Assembly (NCBI GenBank): GCA_045837725.1
Contig: JBEWZL010000079.1
Coordinates: 1 to 64,000 of the forward strand
From: Vermamoeba vermiformis
Taxonomy: Eukaryota
Length of the DNA stretch: 64,000 nucleotides
Reading direction: 5' to 3'
Below, piece after piece: positions 15,664 to 27,545 of this stretch (its first letter is position 1; each line of letters starts with the position of its first letter). The notes beneath the pieces were generated by a model, which saw only the letters and a program-made list of their open reading frames with translations, was not told the origin of the DNA and searched no databases. The position numbers were made by a program, and so were the translations under genes.

Positions 15664-16318
15664 ATAATAAATAGTCCAAACTTAACGAAACGCAAAAATC
15701 CGTACGTTAGATCAAATTTTCGATTTTTGAAGAACAGCACATCTTACTGATGTTGGGACAGCGTTCTTTATTTTGGTAAGTTCTTTGGTGTTGTCTTTGT
15801 AATGAGAAACGCGGATATAATTTTTGATTAGTACCTGATCGGTAATAGTTAATTCTAATCTTGTCATACCGCATTAAAAAAACCAGAAAAAACATAAAAA
15901 ATTTCTTAACACGCACCTAAATATAATTGCTTCCAAATATCATAATCAAACGGTTCTTCTTTGAGATCCGGATAATCGCCTAACTTTAATTTTCCAAAGG
16001 TTATTCATGATTGATTTGCTTATTTTTGGCCCCAAAATCACGTCATAAGCCAAAATTTTCGATGGCAATGCAATAGAACAATTTCCATCGGAGTACGGAT
16101 CTGCTCCGCACTGACTTCTTTCTACTGAGGTCTTATGTTAACTTAGAGAAGGGCCCAACTCTGTTGCCACCACATACATCTGACACTTCTCTTCATTCTG
16201 CAAAGCGTAAAAACTTGGGGACACAACTTTGGTCCGATCAGTCCGAAAGATTCTGTCAGGACGACTTAAAAGCGCAGAATATTAAGGTTGTTTTCCAATT
16301 AATTAACAACTAACAACG

Positions 16319-17764
16319 ATGTCTCTCTCGAGCATTTTGGCGCTTGTTATCTTAACGAGTCTCGCATCTGTTAGCTTTGCTCAAACCAAGCACTACGTCC
16401 TCGCATCTGCTACCGGCAACGGAAATGGAAACGATTGGACCAACGCATATCAAACACTTCCTGCTACTTTAGTTCGTGGAGACATTTACTACGTTGGCTC
16501 CGGTCAATACCCCAGTTTGACGCTAAACGATGCAGAATCTGGTTCAGAGTGGATTACTATTCAAAAAGCTACTGCCAACGACCACGGCACTGATGTTGGA
16601 TGGAGCGATGAATATGGTACTGGCAATGCAAGTTTTCCCACAATCACTGTCGCCTCGTCGTACTACAATTTCAACGGATCTGTTGGCGGCGGTCCTGGAT
16701 CGTGGTTCACGGGCCATGGTTTTGACGTCTATTCAACTGGAAATGTCGGCCAAGCCCTCGTCTTCTTCAATGCTGACGTGCATCACATAATGTTGAGTCA
16801 CACCAGTGTACATGCGGATCGAGACACGCTAACTGCTGCCATGAAACTGACCTTAGGCGGCAATCACGACATTACTGTCAGCTACTGCGCGGGCTACAGC
16901 GTGTTTGGCGTCTTCTTCCACCTCGCTAACGTCTACAACATGGTCGTAGAGTTCTCATACTTCAAAGACAACAAGAGCACAGCAGACTGGCACAGCGAAG
17001 GTATATCGTTCCTAGGCACAGTCACCAACTTGATCGTTCGTCACTGCGTCTGGTGGAAAATTGAAGGCTCGGCGTTCTTGGCAGGTGTCAACAACGGCGA
17101 CGCGTATAACTGGACTGTCCACGGCAACATCTTTTCGAACTCTTGGAGCCCTGCGCTGTATATTGCTGATGACGGAGGGTCCATGAGCGGTCTCCAATAC
17201 TACAACAACTTGATTACCAACGTCAACACTTCATCTGGTGGCATCTACATTTCAAAAGGCTCAGACAACAAAGTCTACAACAACATGTGGTATCATAACG
17301 TAGTCAACTCTTTGTCTATCTGGGCTGACGCAGACTACAACTGGTTCTACGACAACTATCGCATTGACGGTTGTGCTCCCATCTGCGACTTGAACCCTGA
17401 TGCTGTTGCTGCTGAAACGCACGGTGTCGCTGGTACTGGCAATCCGTTCGTGAATTGGGATGGCTTGGCTGATCCTACTACGAGCTCAGTTGACTTTCGT
17501 TTGAAGGAACACACCGCGCCTGGTCTCGACGTAGGCGCTCCGTTCAATGTTGACATGTTTGGCACAGAGCGATTATCAGCACAATGGGATCGTGGTGCCA
17601 CACAATTCACCGTTCCCGTGCCTGTTTCTCCCGTGTCTGCTCCTGCTTCATCACCTCAATCGATGGCACCGAAGACTCTCAGCTCACCAACCGCGAACTT
17701 ATCCAGCAATGGAGTGGCGCTTGGTGCTTCATTGTTTGGTTGGGTACTCGCTTCTCTTATGTAA
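16319..17764 (+). CDS. Intronless secreted, probably GPI-anchored, right-handed beta-helix (pectin-lyase-like) protein
   Basis: 481-aa ORF with signal peptide, Asn-rich beta-helix-like repeats, DFRL...DMFGTER...WDRGA motif, Ser/Pro linker and hydrophobic tail. Confidence 0.75.
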   Translation: MSLSSILALVILTSLASVSFAQTKHYVLASATGNGNGNDWTNAYQTLPATLVRGDIYYVGSGQYPSLTLNDAESGSEWITIQKATANDHGTDVGWSDEYGTGNASFPTITVASSYYNFNGSVGGGPGSWFTGHGFDVYSTGNVGQALVFFNADVHHIMLSHTSVHADRDTLTAAMKLTLGGNHDITVSYCAGYSVFGVFFHLANVYNMVVEFSYFKDNKSTADWHSEGISFLGTVTNLIVRHCVWWKIEGSAFLAGVNNGDAYNWTVHGNIFSNSWSPALYIADDGGSMSGLQYYNNLITNVNTSSGGIYISKGSDNKVYNNMWYHNVVNSLSIWADADYNWFYDNYRIDGCAPICDLNPDAVAAETHGVAGTGNPFVNWDGLADPTTSSVDFRLKEHTAPGLDVGAPFNVDMFGTERLSAQWDRGATQFTVPVPVSPVSAPASSPQSMAPKTLSSPTANLSSNGVALGASLFGWVLASLM

Positions 17765-18239
17765 GAATTGATAAATAAACTTCCTTATTTTAGTGCGTCG
17801 ATTTTTCTGAAGACAACGACACTCTAGTAGACTTGTCAGTATAATATTGAATTTTTTAAGTTAATGTAAGTACTAGAATCGATTAATGATCTCTTCCTAA
17901 TTCCGCGTACGCGTAAGTTAGCGGCGCAAACTTGACGGCGGGTGATTGGCTGTCGGGTGACATTTTGTGACAAGAACATCGGTTATTTTCATAGTTTGAC
18001 ATTATACCTTAACAGTGAACCACGAATGAAGAGTATCACTGTGTTCGTCTTCGTTCTTCTTGCAGCGTCAAGCAGTTGCACAACGCCACCAACATATCCC
18101 TTTTCAGCCGGCCAATGTTTTTAGATAAAAATTATACAAAAATTCAGGACCGTTGATTTTTGGTAATCGCCAGAAGAGACTGTAGTACAAAAAAAGGTAC
18201 AATTTTGTTGGGTGATGTCCATTGACAGTGCGCCACACC

Positions 18240-18700
18240 CCTGAGTAGATCCGGATCGGCCCCAGATCCGATCCACTTCCCCCAGCTCATTTCTTTGTAT
18301 TATTAATAAAAAATGATTAATCACAATACAATACTTGGTTGAGCAAGCACATGTATTCATAGGGAGGAATTTGGCCGGGCCCTAACCCATCCAAGTGTCG
18401 AAGTCACGTTGAGGTGACTGACACGACCAAAACCATGTGATTCATCAATAGAAAGGTCGCAGGCATCAAGGCGACACCCCTCCATAAAGGAGACCGTACA
18501 ACAAAAGAGTGTCCGCTACGGCAAGTGACAAGTCACTTTCTAGCCCATCCAACTCAGTGCCAGTGAGAGTGCTGTTCCGAACCAGTGGTGTTGCCGAGGC
18601 AACACGACCTCCAGACCATACTCTGACCCACATCGTCGAGAATCAGCGCGTAACTTTCTCATTGTAGCGGCGCTAAGGCTTCACCCTTAGACGCCGGATG
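18240..18700. other. Hairpin-dense non-coding tract inside the transposon (candidate structured RNA)
   Basis: At least seven closely spaced stem-loops and no long ORF. Confidence 0.45.
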
Positions 18701-18751
18701 TATTACAAACAGTATTTATTATACTACCTACAGCAAGTTTGTTAACAAATT

Positions 18752-21700
18752 CTATAGTTTAAGCTTACGACAAACGGGTTTGTGTGTGTTCTTACAAGTA
18801 CTGCACAGAAAAATTGGTCTTTTTTTGTCGGAGCTGCATTTCCAACATACTGTGCTAATTTGCTTTCGTTTACGTGGGTTGCACGTTAGGCAAAAACCAT
18901 TGACTCGTCTTTCAAAGACATCTTCGCTCTGAACTCGCACATGAGAAGAGAGACTTTTTGATTTCAGATCTTTTGCGACAATTATTCTTCGGGTTCTGAG
19001 AGATCTGTGTCTAGTTAACGGAGATGCATTTTTCTTGTTGCGTGCAGACTGCTCTTGACTAAGTTCATCCTTTAAAATTTGCAAGAAATCTCGAAATTGA
19101 TCTTCGTCATTGTTCTGAACTTTCTTATAGTAGCGATAGCACTGGTATGAATTCCAAGTGATTATATTTATAATATTTTCCCATACTACTTGTGTCCATT
19201 TTGTTAATCTGAACGGCCAATCAAACGTATGAATTTGTCTTGCCGCCTCGTCGACAAATCCTTTGGTCTTTGTGTATTCTTGGACAATAAGTGGCTTTGT
19301 ACTCTGCATTTACAACTAAATTAGTAACTTAATGACGCAAGCATAAGAAGCTTACTGCAGTCGACGGTACTCCTTGACACAGATCTGTTGCGGCTGATGA
19401 CGCTGCAATGAAATTAGATAAACACTTTGATTAATATTGAACTAACCATCGACGTAATTGGAATAGAGATTCATAATTGCATTGTTATCGCGGAAAGAGT
19501 GAGCAATAATCGGACCAGCAGTGCCTTCTTTTTCAAACGTCAAGTGTTGCCCTGGTTCTTGTAGAGGATTTTGCAAAGTACCAAATATATATGAAGGAGC
19601 ATTTTTCTTTGCCGACAACAAGAATTTAATGCCTTGTTCATCCAAAATAGTAGCCGTCTCTTCCGCACCCCATTTGCTATCTGTTATAATCACGTGGCCA
19701 GGCTTGTGATTGTTCAATTTCTCGGCTAGCTCTAACAGCTGATATTTAGGAGGCAGACATAGACCCAAGAATATATCGAAGTCCCAAATGTAGTAAGATT
19801 CATCGGCGGCCAAGTAGAGTAAGACACCGTTTGGATGTGGCTTGCTTGGAATGAATTGCTGAGTTACGTTAGTTAAAATGTATTATCTAACGATAACAAG
19901 TACTTACTCGGGCATAAAAGCGGCCCAAAAACGGCAAGATGGTTTCATCAAAGGTAATTTTTTGAGATGGAGACCAATTTTTTTGGCATCGTTGAGCTAC
20001 TTCTTGAGTAACTTTGTCAATATCAAAGTGGAAATAATGCATAATCTGTTCGAATCGATCTCGGCCCATTTTTGACGATATCCATTCGTTGCCATACAAG
20101 GGATCTTTGATAGTCCAGTAATCTCTGAGGCGACGACCTTTAACACAACGACTTGCGATCCCAATGGCAATGAATATATCAAATTCTGGCAGCGTAAGTG
20201 GTTTCCAATTTGTTCTTTGCTTTTGAAAAGTAACTTTGTCTTCTTCGGAAGGTTCAAACTCGGTACTAAAATATTCTTCCAAATGCTTTACGTTTGAAAC
20301 CCAACTTGGTACCGTTAGCAATCCTAATTGTGATCAGAATGTTTGTTTTCTCGTTAGCTTATGTAATATTTACCTTTGTATTTTTGTTGCATTTTCTCGG
20401 CCCAAAGTTTGAGCTGTGCAGTTTTGTTCAAACGCCATGTTTTTCGTTCTTGCATAACTTCAGAAAATGAAAGACTGGCATAACGGTTTATATCTTCGAC
20501 CATCTGTAAACGGGTTTGCTCTGCGGTATTCATTAATTCTGAGAATATTCAACGCTCGAATGAATGATACGTACCAGGCAAAAAGCGCGAAAAGATGCTA
20601 GTGTTGGTCATAGGCTGCTTATTGGTGGGCCCGCTATCCAACGTACAAAAGGAGGTACGAACAAAACCTTTACTTGTTTTATCTCGTATTTGCCAACCTT
20701 GATTGGATAGTGCATGCGGAGATTGGAAGTACTTATTCATTATTAATAGTGCATTTGCCCGAATGTCCGACTCGCATATCCAATTTGTTTGCACCTTCTT
20801 ATTTTTCCAATCGATGAGCCATTCCCATAGATCCTAGCCAAAATAAGACAACCATTCGATTATCTCGCATACATACATTATGGAAGCGTACTTTGTAAAT
20901 GCACTTGATTTGCTCAAGAGCTATTTTGCTTCCCGGTGCCACTTTATCCACCATAAGGAGATCGTCGGTTACAGCCTTAACAACAATATGCGAGTCTGGC
21001 AGCTGCCACTCCTTATCTATCGAAGGTGTCTGAAGCTTTGGTTGGCCTTTTTCCAATTGCTTGGGTTCTTAACGGTGCATTAGAATTAAATTAGCCGCGT
21101 TGCACTTACTTTTTTTAGGAGGAGCAATTAAGTTGTCTTCTGTTTCCAACAGGTCGCAAGCGACACTGATTTTACGTTTCCTTGTTTGCATCGTACAGGA
21201 AGCAGGAACGGCAGTCTTCAACGGAAATTGAATGCCGACTTCGGCTTGTTTAATGTAAACCACTGCACTGGCGGAGCGAACACCACCGCTTAACTGCGAA
21301 AGAATAGCAACACGCTCCTACTTGACATTTAGTCCGAGATCGCTTGTTGGAAAAAACATACCCGTGTAACTTTAGCATCATTATAATTGTTCCAATGTAA
21401 AGCACAGCGTTCGTTGACAACAACTCCATAATGTCCATTATTGCGAGTTTTTCCATCGTGCCAAATTACACCATAAAGTAGGTACAAAGTTCCTTCAAAG
21501 TGAACGGATGTTTCGATTGTCAAACGTCGAACTTGCTTGTGTTCATCGAGCTCGGAGAAACGATTGATTCGAATCAATAACAGTTTTGGGTGGTTCAACA
21601 CCTGTTTGCGTAATTGGCAATCCTTTTTATCATTAGATCGAGTACTTCGTTAACAAACATTGATAATAATTACCTTTGCTTGATATTCTACCACTTCCGG

Positions 21701-22628
21701 AGCAAAAAAATCGTCAATTCCTTGTTGAACACTCTGAACGGATGGCTTGAAGTAGATGTCGATCCCTGTACTACATTAGTTATGTGTCGCAAAAACAATA
21801 CGTACAGTTGATCTGCTCCACTCTTCCGTCGTTCACTTGGGTAGAATTTTCATCAAATATCGCCGTACTGAATTGGATAGCTAGTTCTCGCCGCGAATCT
21901 ACCAAATTTAACAAATCTTGTAACAATAGGGTAGCGTCTTGTTGTCCAGCTTGCACAATTGTTCGTACATTAGAATTGATAGCGAGAGTAGTTGCTAGTC
22001 TTTCAAACAGAACTGCAGCATCGACCGGTTGGCTTTGTTCAATGAATTTGAGTAAATACTCGTTGACTAGCATTGCAATCTCGGTAGTTGACTGTTCAAA
22101 CAGTTGCCGTAGACACGGGACCTTTGCAATAAGTACCAAGCATACGTGCAGAAAACAACGAACACTTGGGTTAACAAACCCAAATTTAAACAGCGGAGAC
22201 TATCGCAGAAAATTAGGATTACACTGCACAAGATTATTATTCTTACCTCAAATTCAAATGGATATAATTGTATCTTTCCTATCTTATGCGAAGTAAAATT
22301 GCCTCTATTTTTTGGCTGGCTGTAAATTTGTTAGCACAGAAGACAGATCGACCGTCGAATTTTCTTACTTTAAAATGTTATTAATGATCGCAATAAATTC
22401 ATCTTTTGCTATATTGCCGTGATATGCTTCGTAGACCCAGTGAATGTCGCCCATTGAGAGACCACGCTCATTTGTTTCGTGGAAGTGGATCAACGACTGC
22501 ATGACATTTGGAGAAGCTATAAAACGTTGTAGATCGGTGTCTGAAGATACGACACATTAAAAATAAATTTTTAATAGCGCAAATAACATAGCCTTACCCG
22601 AAAAGACACGAACAAGCGACATCTGCAT
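18752..22628 (-). CDS. USP deubiquitinase - chromodomain - piggyBac transposase fusion (~1,100 aa, 13 predicted introns)
   Basis: USP boxes GFVNPSVRCFLH, GQQDA, HDGKTRNNGHY, WNNYNDAKV. Chromo-like IKCIYKVRFHN/DLWEWLIDWKNKKVQTNWICESDI. Transposase TFDET, QFIPSKPHPNG, ITDSKW, GFVDE and Cys-rich tail. All GT-AG joins checked stay in frame. Confidence 0.8.
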
Positions 22629-22876
22629 CCAAAAAAAATAGTACCTTAGTATTGGCTAAAAAATGTAGTAAATTACTCTAGAACGTCCAAATTTAATTGA
22701 GATTTTCGCCGTTTAGGTAAAATAAAAAATATGAAAATTCGATGACAAATTAGGATCGGGTTCATTTACCCTACTGAAGGCCGGCAATTGGTGGTATCTT
22801 GCAACAACATAAGCATCGAACTGGTTCAAAACAGAAAATGGCGAATTACTGCAGAAAAAGCACGTGAGTATTTATT

Positions 22877-25703
22877 TCAAGGAATTCCATCGAGATCACT
22901 CAGCTGGTTGAAAGCGGCAATGAATGCATTGGGATCGAACTCAGGAACTTCAAAAAGTCCAAGCGAGCAAAGCAACACTTCATAATGGAGCTGTAGGTAC
23001 TGTAGCACCAGATCCAGTGGCTGCTCGCCAAATATTGTCGCCATAGCAAGCCCGCCTGCGTCACTTAACTCTAACTCATCCACGACACCGGCAACTCGTT
23101 GGTACAATTCGCAAACTTGGACCAGCAATGGATCTGCGAAACTCAGTGTCAACAAAGTGCATGATAAAAATGACTCCTCTTACTGATCGTTGGTACTGAA
23201 TGAGCCAAGGGGTGTTCGCGTAGGAATTTATGACGATTGAATAGCTCAAATGTGTAGAACGGCTCGACGGAGAATTCAGTGTATGCATCCAGGTTCACTC
23301 GACGAACAAACCACGTGCCTAATGAATCATTACACAAATTGACACAGTGCGAAAGTTGCTTACCGATGAATTGGAAGACATCTTCTTGATATTCAACCGC
23401 AATTTCGAGAGGAAGACAGTGATAACAATTGAGCCGCACCATGTCATTCCTTGCTGAATCTGCCCCGCGATTGACGACAAATGAGCCATCAATCATCGTG
23501 CCGCCCGCCCCACCAACTGTTATAACCCCCTCGCGCCAATTACTCCAATTATTACCAGGGAAATTTTTCCGAAGTAACATCGACGTACAACCTGGAGTGA
23601 ATTAATCCATCGCGCCGTTTAATTTGCAGAATTGGAATTACCTATTTGACTGAGGCCATTAAAGGAGGAGTCTATTGTTAAGCCACCAGTAAATTCTGCT
23701 TTGGCCAAATCGAACTTGGAATACAGCTCCCCAACCTGAGCTTTCGTTATTTTGATTGAAGTGATTAAACGTCAAGATTGTCACTTACTTTAAGATGTTT
23801 TCTCGGGCCGAAGATACATGATTTACCAACGGCACATTCATGCAACTGCTCGATGAGCAAAACTTTGCAAGACGCACAATACAACAGTTGATTGTTGTGC
23901 AAAAGCAAGTGAGCAAACGCCCAACAACCTCCGGTGGGGAAAAATATATCAATCAAAGGCTTAATAGGTTCCGTATTCCGAGCCAGTCCACTGCGCGAGA
24001 GTTTTCGTTTCTTGGCATTTGTCGAAGGCCGCAGTGCTCGCCTCCACTGCATTAGCTTTTGTTTGTTGGTTGTCCAGGTCGACAAAGAATAACCAAGAGT
24101 TGTATTTGCCTCTATAAAATAATTAGTGGAAGTACAGACCAAATATTAACAGCTTACCACAGTTGCGTTTCTCGGACTCGTAAATGTTTACATCTACATT
24201 ACGAATTGTCGCCACCCAACGTATAAATCTGGAATATACACCGACTACTCGATGTTTCAAGTATGATTGCATTCGTTTTGGTTGTAAAAGCATCATATTG
24301 TCCACGAGCGGAATGTCAACATCCCCTAAGCACAATGCATTAGAAATTAATTGTTGCGTAAACGGTAACGCACTCACGAGTCCCAGTCTGCGAACGCTCC
24401 TGCACCACAAAGCGCCACCCCGGTGGGGCATCACAGTTAGCCACCAATTCATCTGGATCTACGAAACCAGAGACCGTAAACACAACAACGTCTCTTGCAT
24501 TGCCCAAGTACTTGTCATCTAATTGATAAAATAAATACAAATGCAATAACAATAGTTTGTTGCGTACTATCAGCATGCGATCCCATGGCGGGGAATACTT
24601 CTCGGTTATTTGCCCGAGCTAGTTCTATGTCATCCTCCGATAAAGGCGGATAGGCAGTAAACATTACACAAGTTGAGTGACTGCAAAAGTAGCCAAAGTC
24701 GCGTAGTTTTCGGAATAGTAGCTGGATGCACTCGGGTGTTTGATTCGTAGAATCACGGTAGAAATTGCTTCATAGTAGTTGTTAGAATAAATAAAATTGA
24801 TATATTGAATCATACTTATAGGAGATACCGGTGCCTGTATTTCCGTACACTGCATACAGCCGTTTGGTAACTGCAGTCAACCGTTCATTGATCTTGCCCT
24901 CTGGTGAGAACAAAATGTCTTGGAACAGCGAGGATTTAAAGGATGAGTATTCAGACTCGTCAAAAAACTGGTGATAGACCAGAATATCAACGCCGAAAGC
25001 TGAGACCATTTCCGTAGCCCTGTGTCACGAGATCATTATAATTAACCCCACTGACGGTAATCTTACTTACGCAGGTAATTCAGTATGCGTACTCTCCTCA
25101 ATCAATTGTTCAAAGCAAGTAATAGGCTCGGAGTCAATAAAGGCGGTATCATTAAGGGTGTCGTAGATCGGTGAATCTAAAATTGTGACATTAGATTTAA
25201 TTGCTCAATACTATTTATCGATAAATACTTACCAATTTCAATTGGTTTTGTACAAATCAGGCTGCAGTTCCAAGTTAAAGAGTAGAACCGCTCTAAAACG
25301 CCATCTGAATTTTTCACCTTCAAATCGCCAGCAATTATCTGCTTTACGAACTCCTCAAGCTTGCCGTAGGGCATTGTAATATTGGGCTCCTCTGCTAAAA
25401 GGGTCGAGATTACCGCCCTAAAAACTAGCCGTTACTAATTAAGTTAATTTAATTAATTAAAATTTTAATTTACGCAACAAATTCCCAAAACTAATAAGAA
25501 ATAAATACGTACCTTAGAGGAATATTTTTCTTATTTTCTGGATCAATTTTGAATAAACGCCGAAAGGCTGCACCAACGATCTTGTTTTGGCTGGTGGCGG
25601 ACAAGCTAACCACCCTATAGTCATGGCGGACGCTAGACCGGTCAACAGAATTGTCCGGTCCGCATTCCACAACTCTAGTGTGCACATGTGTTGTCGCCTC
25701 CAT
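22877..25703 (-). CDS. Transposon cargo gene with an AlkB-family (ALKBH2/3-like) 2OG-Fe(II) dioxygenase domain plus uncharacterised flanking domains
   Basis: Spliced peptide YHQFFDESE...KRLYAVYGNTG..ISY...MGSHADNDKYLG...IPL...MQSYLKHRV...RWVATIR matches the HxD...H...RxxxxxR signature. Followed by AKKRKL and CASC...HEC. Confidence 0.75.
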
Positions 25704-27545
25704 CCAGAAACAGATAAATGGAAAAATTCGGGACTGTATTTTTGTCTACAAGATTTTACTCATACACACAACGATGGGTATAAATAATTCAACGTTGCGT
25801 ATGCCAAATTATGGAAAACACCATCTTACAACGGCAGATTTAGTGATCCTCACCCGATCTCCGCACCACCCTTCGCCATAAATTACTGTAAGCTTAGAAT
25901 AATTAAAATACCCTACCAAAAAATCAATGTTGCTAATAACCCGCTAAAATAATTGTCCCTTCAATATTTATAAATTTTTTTTCGTGCGCCGGGATCAAAG
26001 GGATATTATCAAGTCAGCCACAGCGCACACACGTTCAACGACACCAATATGCTCTATTATGGCTCATCAAGTGTTACGTCGGAACAATATGTATTAGGAG
26101 TGCCATCAGAGCCGTTCAGTGTTGGATTGGTGCTGCATCCGGAAAAAGTTCCCGCTCATAATGGCTTCTTTCTTCAATTTGACTGGAAACCTTCGAATTG
26201 CGCGCCTGGAAACTCATTTAATACCTCACTAAGAGCTGATGGGTAATTGAAGTTCGATTAGTTCAAAGATCTAATTTTAGTTTTAGATTCGCAATTGTTT
26301 TTCTGAAAGACTTGCCCACGAATGAGCAAGTAGAACAATCTATTGGTACTCTTGGTATTGGAAGAGTACCGAATACATATTCATTCGGCTATGTATCAAC
26401 TTACAATGAGTTTTACGTTTGTCGTTGGTGAGTGTTGTCGGATTCGGTTCGAACAAAAGGCTTATCTTTCTCTGTAATAGGAATGATCCCTTGCCGATAG
26501 TGCAAAAACCGGGAATACTCCGCAAAGTGTGTCAAGTGTTTCCTTATTCTGATTTCCCAATGACTTGTGGCGATGCTTGGCATTTTGACCTTGTTCTCGA
26601 ATACAATCAGCTCTCAGTAAGTGATTATAACTGCCATAAGACTAGTTTATTTAATCGATATTGTTTAGTGGATTGGCGACGGTGGCGTGATATATTCAAT
26701 TCCGTTTGAAATGGATCCCGTTGATTATTTCATTGGACTGAGTTTCGGAAACGATAATTATTACCAACAACAAGAATTAATAGAAGCCATGTATTACCAC
26801 GTTGAGAAGACAACACAATTCGATGTAATTGAATCGAATTTAACCGGAGACTTCAGATTTTGCGGATCTGCCGAACCTCTCGAACAATCGATTAAACTGA
26901 TTAACAATGGAGATAATGAATACGGACTGGCAATCCTCGTATCCGCGTAAGAGTGCTCAACTATTATTTCAGTACCGAACCTAATTTACTAATTTGACAC
27001 GTGTCACTCAGATTCTCTTTCTTCTTTTCTTCTCGTGACATGCCAGATTGTGTCCCGCACGACAACTTAAGACTTGATGGCACCGGGTTCCCCCGCATTG
27101 ATGCTTTTGCTTATTCCGCGTACGATCAAAAGTTCTACATTTGCGATTGGTTAGTAGCGCCATCGACAACAACATGATATTCAACTTAGTTTAATAGGAA
27201 CGGACCCAATCAGACCACTCCTTGTACGCCTGTTCTGGCTGTGAGCAGAGGGTTCATTCATTGCGAATCAACTTACAACTTCATTTTATACTTTCAAAAC
27301 GGCGTACTCAACGTAAGTACTGTTTCTTCAGAATAGTAGCGATCTTGTGCAAGCTAATCTTACTGACCGTTTAGGTGTACCTCAACGACGCTCCGTTTTT
27401 TACTGCCAATCTCAACTTTGAAGAGGAAGCTTATTACGCTGGATTCGCGGCCAGCTCTGGCAACATTGATCGCCATTGCCGCCAGGTCATCTCCAATTGG
27501 ACGATGAACACTGACTTGAGTTCAGTGAATCTCACCGAGTATCTC

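Follow-up and report, generated by a model that had tools for sequence, protein, structure and literature searches.

A transcribed gene for a divergent AlkB-like protein in a putative piggyBac-superfamily transposon of Vermamoeba vermiformis

Mobile elements with enzymes of nucleic acid modification reveal the host controls that they must beat. The precedents found in the literature are the TET/JBP dioxygenases of DNA transposons in fungi, and AlkB domains in one lineage of orchid retrotransposons and in plant RNA viruses. Ty3/Gypsy retrotransposons of Phalaenopsis were reported to carry an AlkB (2-oxoglutarate-dependent dioxygenase, 2-ODD) open reading frame (ORF), which was proposed to act on the RNA of the element; its domain closely resembles plant N6-methyladenosine (m6A) demethylases and showed m6A demethylase activity in vitro (PMC9289625). 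The same article cites AlkB domains in RNA viruses of plants, namely the Alpha- and Betaflexiviridae and the Closteroviridae. In fungi, TET/JBP dioxygenases were documented in KDZ, hAT, Harbinger, EnSpm, Helitron and other DNA transposons (PMC12730594). Here we describe a stretch of 64,000 nucleotides from Vermamoeba vermiformis (contig JBEWZL010000079.1 of assembly GCA_045837725.1, positions 1 to 64,000; hereafter the window), in which a spliced gene on the minus strand encodes a 758-aa protein with an AlkB-like central domain and appears to be carried by a transposon of the piggyBac superfamily. The features are collected in Table 1.

Comparison with these systems reveals both likeness and difference. 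The Phalaenopsis retrotransposons, as described in PMC9289625, and the window element have in common an additional gene, for an AlkB-type dioxygenase, within a transposable element; the carrier in the orchid is a long terminal repeat (LTR) retrotransposon, whereas the one described here is predicted to be a cut-and-paste DNA transposon, with a domain that is too divergent for Pfam and is known from sequence. The plant RNA viruses likewise are selfish elements encoding their own AlkB-type enzyme, which is thought to protect their nucleic acid. In the viruses, however, AlkB is a domain inside the replicase polyprotein, while in the window it would belong to a stand-alone, intron-bearing nuclear gene of a DNA transposon. 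The fungal elements share with the window element a captured 2-oxoglutarate (2OG)-Fe(II) nucleic-acid dioxygenase, presumed to counter methylation-based silencing. Their enzymes, though, belong to another dioxygenase family (TET/JBP, oxidation of 5-methylcytosine, 5mC), and piggyBac is unnamed among the carriers in the abstract of PMC12730594. From the evidence presented below we consider it quite probable that the window contains a transcribed, divergent AlkB-type gene, with a predicted demethylase activity, carried by a 7.9-kb piggyBac-superfamily transposon.

The window has a GC content of ~40% and many short GT-AG introns, which give it a eukaryotic character. When exons 4 to 8 (25019-24816 to 24111-23789) are joined across introns of 48, 49, 52 and 46 nt, a single open frame of 345 codons is obtained, which carries the stretches KRLYAVYG, MGSHAD/NDKYLG (the slash marks the exon joint), KHRV and RWVATIR. 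The model was extended both ways from these exons, later with a homolog as guide, and the resulting coding sequence (CDS) of 2,277 nt is interrupted by ten introns of 46-95 nt, all of them (10/10) with GT..AG ends. A preliminary description of this DNA had placed an intron-hidden domain at 24195-25010. This range coincides with residues 166-386 of the model, the splicing does give one open frame, and the peptide stretches quoted there were all found on the minus strand, at the positions given.

Four public runs were mapped on 18600-26000 for transcript evidence, which came from contigs of two of the data sets, X1 and X4, belonging to two studies. X4 is an RNA library and the library type of X1 is not on record; the raw RNA runs X9 and X11 gave 0 reads and hence constitute no test. 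The X1 and X4 contigs are at least 99% identical to the window, and their joints show CT..AC on the plus strand. Joints were observed at seven of the ten introns of the AlkB-like gene. Six of these are exact (25512-25418, 25070-25020, 24815-24768, 24377-24326, 24157-24112 and 23788-23736), and the joint at the seventh, 25232-25177, differs by 3 nt and stays in frame. The gene for the 758-aa protein is real, transcribed and spliced. At exon 2/3 (25171-25233) the X1 contig lacks 3 nt relative to the window, with one codon lost in frame, the cause being a strain difference or an alternative acceptor.

One might suspect that permissive in silico splicing produced the motif match by chance, as introns of 38-130 nt were allowed and open paths are easily found in this DNA. 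Against this stand the transcript joints, which back the introns, the transcript-derived homolog P0123 (see below), which is colinear over 750 residues, and the shuffled controls, which fall far below the real match. We count this explanation as already refuted and give it practically no chance.

Relatives of the protein were sought by a HMMER scan of 1.84 billion representative proteins with exon 4 (67 aa) as query at E <=1e-3. The scan returned seven matches, five of which were kept: P0123, which is full length, and the exon-sized fragments P0126, P0122, P0124 and P0127. The other two were dropped as spurious, P0125 because its match consists of seven short stretches and P0128 as a bacterial FIVAR/SLH surface protein. 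P0123 is a complete ORF of 728 aa and comes from the EukProt data on Vermamoeba vermiformis, a Trinity transcriptome. In blastp, residues 4-753 of the 758-aa model align with residues 6-728 of P0123 at 32.7% identity (E 1.2e-120). P0123 reads uninterrupted across the positions of introns 4, 5 and 9, and therefore supports these junctions independently of our splice choices. P0126 and P0124, genomic ORF fragments from other organisms, run into an intron at the site of exon 4/5, which indicates that this intron position is conserved across the family. When metagenomes were scanned with the alignment of exon 4, three contigs were obtained, L123, L124 and L125, each with a colinear, intron-split homolog; between L123 and L124 the identity is 99.3%. 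Identity across the family is 33-50% overall, and the P0123 domain is ~45% identical to that of the window. No further relatives of P0123 sized 400-1274 aa were found in a collection of 5.8 billion proteins, neither of the two candidates from a word-index protein search with exon 5 scored, and a scan of viral contigs with the exon 4 alignment gave 42 pattern matches with no relative among them. The ESM Atlas returned unrelated fragments only, at 0.86, for exon 5; for P0123 the best match was at 0.76 and a PF13532-bearing cluster stood at rank 4 (0.75), which we take as a lead only.

Profile comparison has been the principal tool for assigning the central domain. A profile built from enterobacterial AlkB (120 sequences, at least 77% identity) was too narrow and gave no match. 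As 80 other AlkB loci were also narrow (at least 58% identical), PF13532 matches from a single bacterial phylum (151 genomes) were used instead, together with some of those loci, and yielded 47 distinct sequences, whose scores with the Pfam model span 32 to 211 bits. The hidden Markov model (HMM) of this AlkB profile gave 6.4 bits with the window protein (E 3.8e-4, single target), above 3000 of 3000 shuffles with a maximum of 4.5 bits, and 14.6 bits with P0123 (E 1.2e-6). In hhalign, the single window sequence aligned colinearly with the AlkB profile over 199 columns with a probability of just 2.8%, and the probability climbed with added family rows to 80.9%, to 87.8% and, for the domain columns alone, to 92.8%. 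This last comparison, of a six-row family profile, had E 4e-7 and a score of 51.7 over 184 columns and spanned AlkB residues 16-214, nearly the whole of AlkB. The reversed query scored 13.6, and 60 column shuffles reached at most 21.6.

The residue register was taken from hhalign with E. coli-type AlkB as the template master. In this register the HxD...H facial triad and the R-x5-R motif are both present in the window protein and aligned with those of AlkB (Table 1), and Y122, D135 and T208 of E. coli AlkB correspond to Y268, D297 and T382. The earlier proposition that all Fe/2OG ligands are present is thus borne out, with H293/D295/H367 and R378/R384 in register with the E. coli enzyme. Among the family rows covering each position, the HxD motif and Y268 are kept in 5/5, and the distal His and the first Arg in 4/4. 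The Asp after HxD also falls in register with the AlkB family (E. coli AlkB, ALKBH2, ALKBH3; PF13532), whose members are the best structural neighbours of the P0123-domain model described below. Nevertheless, the identity of the window domain to the AlkB profile is just ~14-15%, which is below Pfam detection. These results support the view that ~220 residues in the middle of the protein make up an AlkB-type domain that has diverged strongly; it is AlkB-like and is not a recognised ALKBH2/3 orthologue. The AlkB-like domain claimed in the preliminary description thus stands, with the profile match at 92.8% (E 4e-7).

Unlike members of the AlkB family, the window domain forms part of a 758-aa protein whose N- and C-terminal regions have no assigned family, and is apparently encoded by a transposon. 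The C-terminal half of exon 8 encodes a Cys/His-rich stretch, preceded by a basic KKRK-type patch, which matches no library family and is kept in P0123 (~455-520). The stretch may serve to bind zinc or nucleic acids. A C-terminal region of ~220 aa, to which no family was assigned, follows it. If a transcript that retains intron 9 is translated, the product would be an isoform of 544 aa that stops at a TAA near 23622; such an isoform would keep the dioxygenase and the Cys/His-rich parts, without the C-terminal 220 aa.

The AlkB-like gene is the first gene of the element and is followed by a ubiquitin C-terminal hydrolase domain and then by a piggyBac transposase. Both ends of the element read CCCTTT....CCGGC (CCC...GGG ends), and both are flanked by ATAT. 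The right terminal repeat precedes the ATG of the AlkB-like gene by 299 nt. In L124, the corresponding ATAT/CCCTTAGAAGCCG precedes the orthologous ATG by 313 nt, with the ATAT at L124 124-127, this being the sole end visible on that contig. The occurrence of ATAT in both the window and L124 gives a hint of a family-wide ATAT target. When 18098-26002 and one ATAT are deleted in silico, the start at ATG 18026 joins 26007-26243 in frame, and the rejoined host frame is open for 80 further codons while the other two frames close earlier. The gene order in L123/L124 is the AlkB-like gene, the hydrolase, linker ORFs and then the first part of the transposase, where the contig ends; amino-acid identity to the window is 31-55%. 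The end motif in L124, the restored host ORF and the gene order in L123/L124 place the end pair at 18094/26006 above chance. The earlier statement that the gene lies inside a transposon holds up in this 7,905-bp unit with CCC...GGG ends and ATAT flanks, the removal of which restores a host ORF. Taken together, these observations support the location of the AlkB-like gene within a predicted piggyBac-superfamily transposon, whose insertion is read from the in silico empty site. The element would have inserted, with duplication of ATAT, into the first exon of a gene for a secreted protein, as suggested by its signal-peptide-like start. No second copy of the element was found within the 64-kb window.

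The piggyBac superfamily is present in Amoebozoa; its terminal inverted repeats (TIRs) average 14 +/- 2 bp and start with C[C/A/T][C/A/T], and its members duplicate TTAA, with ATAT among the few rare exceptions, as reported in PMC5381638. The window element resembles canonical piggyBac, as characterised there, in its DDE_Tnp_1_7 transposase with a Cys-rich C-terminus, its short TIRs starting with CCC and its 4-bp palindromic flank. It differs in being flanked by ATAT, in its length of 7.9 kb, in the extra 758-aa gene and in the hydrolase domain upstream of the transposase.

The ORFs of the hydrolase and the transposase (18752-22556) can be chained into one frame via short introns of good consensus, and the linker ORFs F to I between them are conserved in L123. 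Because of both, a fusion gene is likely, and it probably encodes a putative deubiquitinase-transposase of ~1,000 aa. The RNA evidence on the hydrolase-transposase region is one unspliced contig (19539-19809).

Table 1. Predicted and observed features of the AlkB-like gene, the putative element that carries it and the neighbouring DNA (window positions).
Feature	Position	Strand	Evidence or remark
AlkB-like gene	25703-22877	minus	11 exons, 758 aa + stop; homolog-guided model
AlkB-like gene, exons 1-6	25703-25513, 25417-25233, 25176-25071, 25019-24816, 24767-24568, 24518-24378	minus	
AlkB-like gene, exons 7-11	24325-24158, 24111-23789, 23735-23642, 23591-23184, 23133-22877	minus	
Predicted AlkB-type Fe(II)/2OG dioxygenase domain	25006-24195	minus	residues 166-386, exons 4-7; hhalign, fold searches on homolog model
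H293-A-D295	24577-24569	minus	aligned to E. coli AlkB H131/D133; last codons of exon 5
H367	24254-24252	minus	aligned to AlkB H187 (third Fe ligand)
R378...R384 (RWVATIR)	24221-24201	minus	aligned to AlkB R204...R210 (2OG binding)
Cys/His-rich stretch	23960-23789 (approximate)	minus	C-terminal half of exon 8
piggyBac-like element, putative, 7,905 bp	18098-26002	minus (all three coding units)	inverted end motifs, ATAT flanks
ATAT, putative target-site duplication, left	18094-18097		
ATAT, putative target-site duplication, right	26003-26006		
Left terminal inverted repeat, CCCTTTTCAGCCGGCC	18098-18113	plus	preceded by ATAT
Right terminal inverted repeat, CCCTTTGATCCCGGCG	25987-26002	minus	minus-strand reading, ATAT before
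Ubiquitin C-terminal hydrolase (UCH/USP) domain	22199-21332	minus	PF00443, E 1.2e-8 (21332-21649) and E 0.015 (21783-22199)
piggyBac transposase (DDE_Tnp_1_7), three large exons, Cys-rich C-terminus	20333-18752	minus	PF13843, E 6.1e-17 (19890-20333) and 5.8e-8 (19445-19882); 18752-19309 with E 2.5e-4, below curated cut-off
Host gene, 5' part: ATG, signal-peptide-like start	18026-18097	plus	
Host ORF, continuation past the element	26007-26243	plus	no Pfam family matched
14-3-3 gene, intronless, 249-aa product	39839-38997	minus	PF00244, E 1.2e-108; exact product absent from a collection of 15 billion proteins
485-codon open frame, right-handed beta-helix repeat	16307-17764	plus	PF13229, E 7.9e-6; just upstream of interrupted host gene

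A number of observations, gathered in this and the following three paragraphs together with the alternatives on which they bear, count against a transcribed AlkB-type gene carried by a transposon. The junction of exons 5 and 6 (HAD/ND, intron 24567-24519) is uncovered by the listed contigs, which leave a coverage gap at 24495-24638; its support is indirect and comes from the GT..AG ends, the open frame and the homolog P0123, which reads through (FHSD-DDKYLG). Intron 9 (23641-23592) is retained in the sole contig that covers it; intron 10 is outside the coverage of the listed transcript contigs. Pfam matched none of the four exon-bearing ORFs (0/4) to a 2OG family at E up to 10, and neither Pfam at E up to 1 nor NCBIfam found such a family in full-length P0123. 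The HMM check with 2OG-FeII_Oxy_2 that had been proposed earlier accordingly gave no match in the exon ORFs or in P0123. A TNP-like_RNaseH_C match of Pfam on an exon ORF (E 0.012) was weak and judged to be noise. Sequence searches of the PDB with exon 7, exon 5, the profile of alignment A4 and P0123 did not find AlkB.

Fold prediction by AlphaFold2 (AF2) was carried out on the P0123 domain, with family rows only, and not on the window protein. The folded alignment, A8, comprised 12 rows, the exon 6 rows being left out after MAFFT had misplaced exon fragments in A2, A3, A6 and A7. The first model, from alignment A4, was unusable (predicted local distance difference test, pLDDT, 38) and the second was of low confidence (pLDDT 56, predicted template modelling score, pTM, 0.55). 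With this model, Foldseek gave no match to the PDB at E <=1e-3, and every match listed was a 2OG oxygenase. The first match was a prolyl hydroxylase and many PHD2 chains stood high, which would suit another 2OG-Fe(II) oxygenase, either prolyl/lysyl-hydroxylase-like or a TET/JBP-like 5mC oxidase, with an AlkB likeness at the level of the superfamily; the carriage of TET/JBP dioxygenases by fungal DNA transposons, as reported in PMC12730594, points the same way. Ranked by target template modelling score (TM-score), however, ABH2 was the best with 0.50-0.58 against 0.34-0.44 for PHD2, as calculated with the low-confidence model. A second fold search with the same low-confidence model retrieved ALKBH2 and ALKBH3 first, followed by prolyl hydroxylase (6.6), OGFOD1 (6.5) and E. 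coli AlkB (6.5), and nearly all of the 50 matches listed were titled as 2OG oxygenases. TET structures ranked lower (TET2 5.3, NgTET1 5.0, CcTet 4.5). The rival profiles, built in the same way as that of AlkB, gave hhalign probabilities of 1.3% (score 20.0) for the PF13640 type (prolyl 4-hydroxylase-like; 29/30 loci usable) and 0.3% (score 16.1) for the PF03171 type (14/21), far from the 92.8% of AlkB. These two types were the profile rivals covered, and TET/JBP was compared by fold search only; PF12851 (TET/JBP) had matches in 0/301 bacterial genomes searched. In addition, the R-x5-R motif that is specific to AlkB, including its Thr at position 5, falls in register and is conserved. We therefore regard a different 2OG oxygenase as unlikely and keep the AlkB-type assignment. 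Within the AlkB family, ALKBH2, ALKBH3, FTO, ALKBH6, ALKBH1 and NMAD-1 tied within one Z unit, and since these neighbours extend across DNA-repair, RNA and N6-methyladenine (6mA) enzymes, no subfamily or substrate is singled out.

The fold could also have been kept by a protein that is catalytically dead or repurposed, for instance as a module through which the transposase complex binds nucleic acid. At the positions of N120, N206, W69 and Y76 of AlkB, the last two of which are lid residues, the window protein has T266, V380, V218 and I226, respectively, a 16-residue insertion stands ahead of the HxD motif, and the second Arg is kept in just 3/4 covering rows, L123 having His. Yet no covering row has lost the Fe triad, the first Arg or Y268, at an overall identity of just 33-50%, and the conservation of ligands despite such divergence argues for selection on catalysis. 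A dead or repurposed fold is thus highly unlikely in our estimation, and a catalytically competent AlkB-type protein is preferred.

As for the element, its terminal repeat is short and imperfect (11/16 positions match), its flank is ATAT and not the piggyBac-defining TTAA, and a scan restricted to the end zones gave three 10-nt inverted matches, which is about chance level. A scan for TTAA-flanked TIRs and general inverted-repeat scans gave nothing convincing. An ordinary host gene that happens to lie beside a domesticated piggyBac-derived gene, with no mobile element and no cargo, would be consistent with the missing TTAA-flanked TIR pair and with a terminal inverted match of 10 nt exact only, which by itself is at chance level. 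It would also be consistent with the intron positions conserved in the family (P0126 and P0124 at exon 4/5) and with L125, where hydrolase and transposase were not found downstream of the AlkB-like homolog. This arrangement in L125 suggests that the AlkB-like family also occurs outside this element, which fits the capture of a host gene. On the other hand, the CCC...GGG ends and the identical ATAT flanks lie exactly where the excision rejoins the signal-peptide exon in frame, the end motif recurs in L124 at a similar place, 313 nt against 299 nt upstream of the ATG, and the trio of genes is colinear in L123/L124. The host-gene explanation is decidedly unlikely in view of these findings, and carriage of the AlkB-like gene by a piggyBac-superfamily transposon is preferred.

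If the AlkB-type reading of the domain is correct, the protein would bind Fe(II) via H293/D295/H367 and 2OG via R378/R384/Y268, and would oxidatively remove N-methyl groups from nucleic-acid bases. The possible substrates include the 1-methyladenine (1mA) and 3-methylcytosine (3mC) lesions of ALKBH2/3 type, or m6A/6mA on the DNA or transcripts of the element itself. Such demethylation would help the element to escape damage or methylation-based control by the host, a role that we argue from the AlkB of the orchid Gypsy elements, the AlkB of plant RNA viruses and the TET/JBP dioxygenases of fungi.

The literature searched contains no report of an AlkB-type gene in piggyBac or any other DNA transposon. 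What appears to be new here is a mobile element with a divergent AlkB-like family, while mobile elements carrying nucleic-acid dioxygenases were already known. If true, the AlkB strategy would extend to a new transposon superfamily and probably to a new eukaryotic group. The family, with five relatives recovered and one of them full length, is left unnamed by Pfam, NCBIfam and PDB sequence searches, and is a concrete target for the biochemical discovery of substrates. The ATAT flanks bear on the choice of target by piggyBac transposases. It is conceivable, though rather doubtful at present, that the window element represents an undescribed piggyBac lineage of amoeba-like protists, characterised by an ATAT target, a divergent AlkB-type demethylase from a new AlkB subfamily, overlooked by present domain libraries, and a transposase-fused deubiquitinase, with both enzymes directed against host defence.

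The remaining observation concerns the interrupted host gene, whose exons reach ~27857, contain a Pro/Val/Thr repeat and gave no Pfam match.

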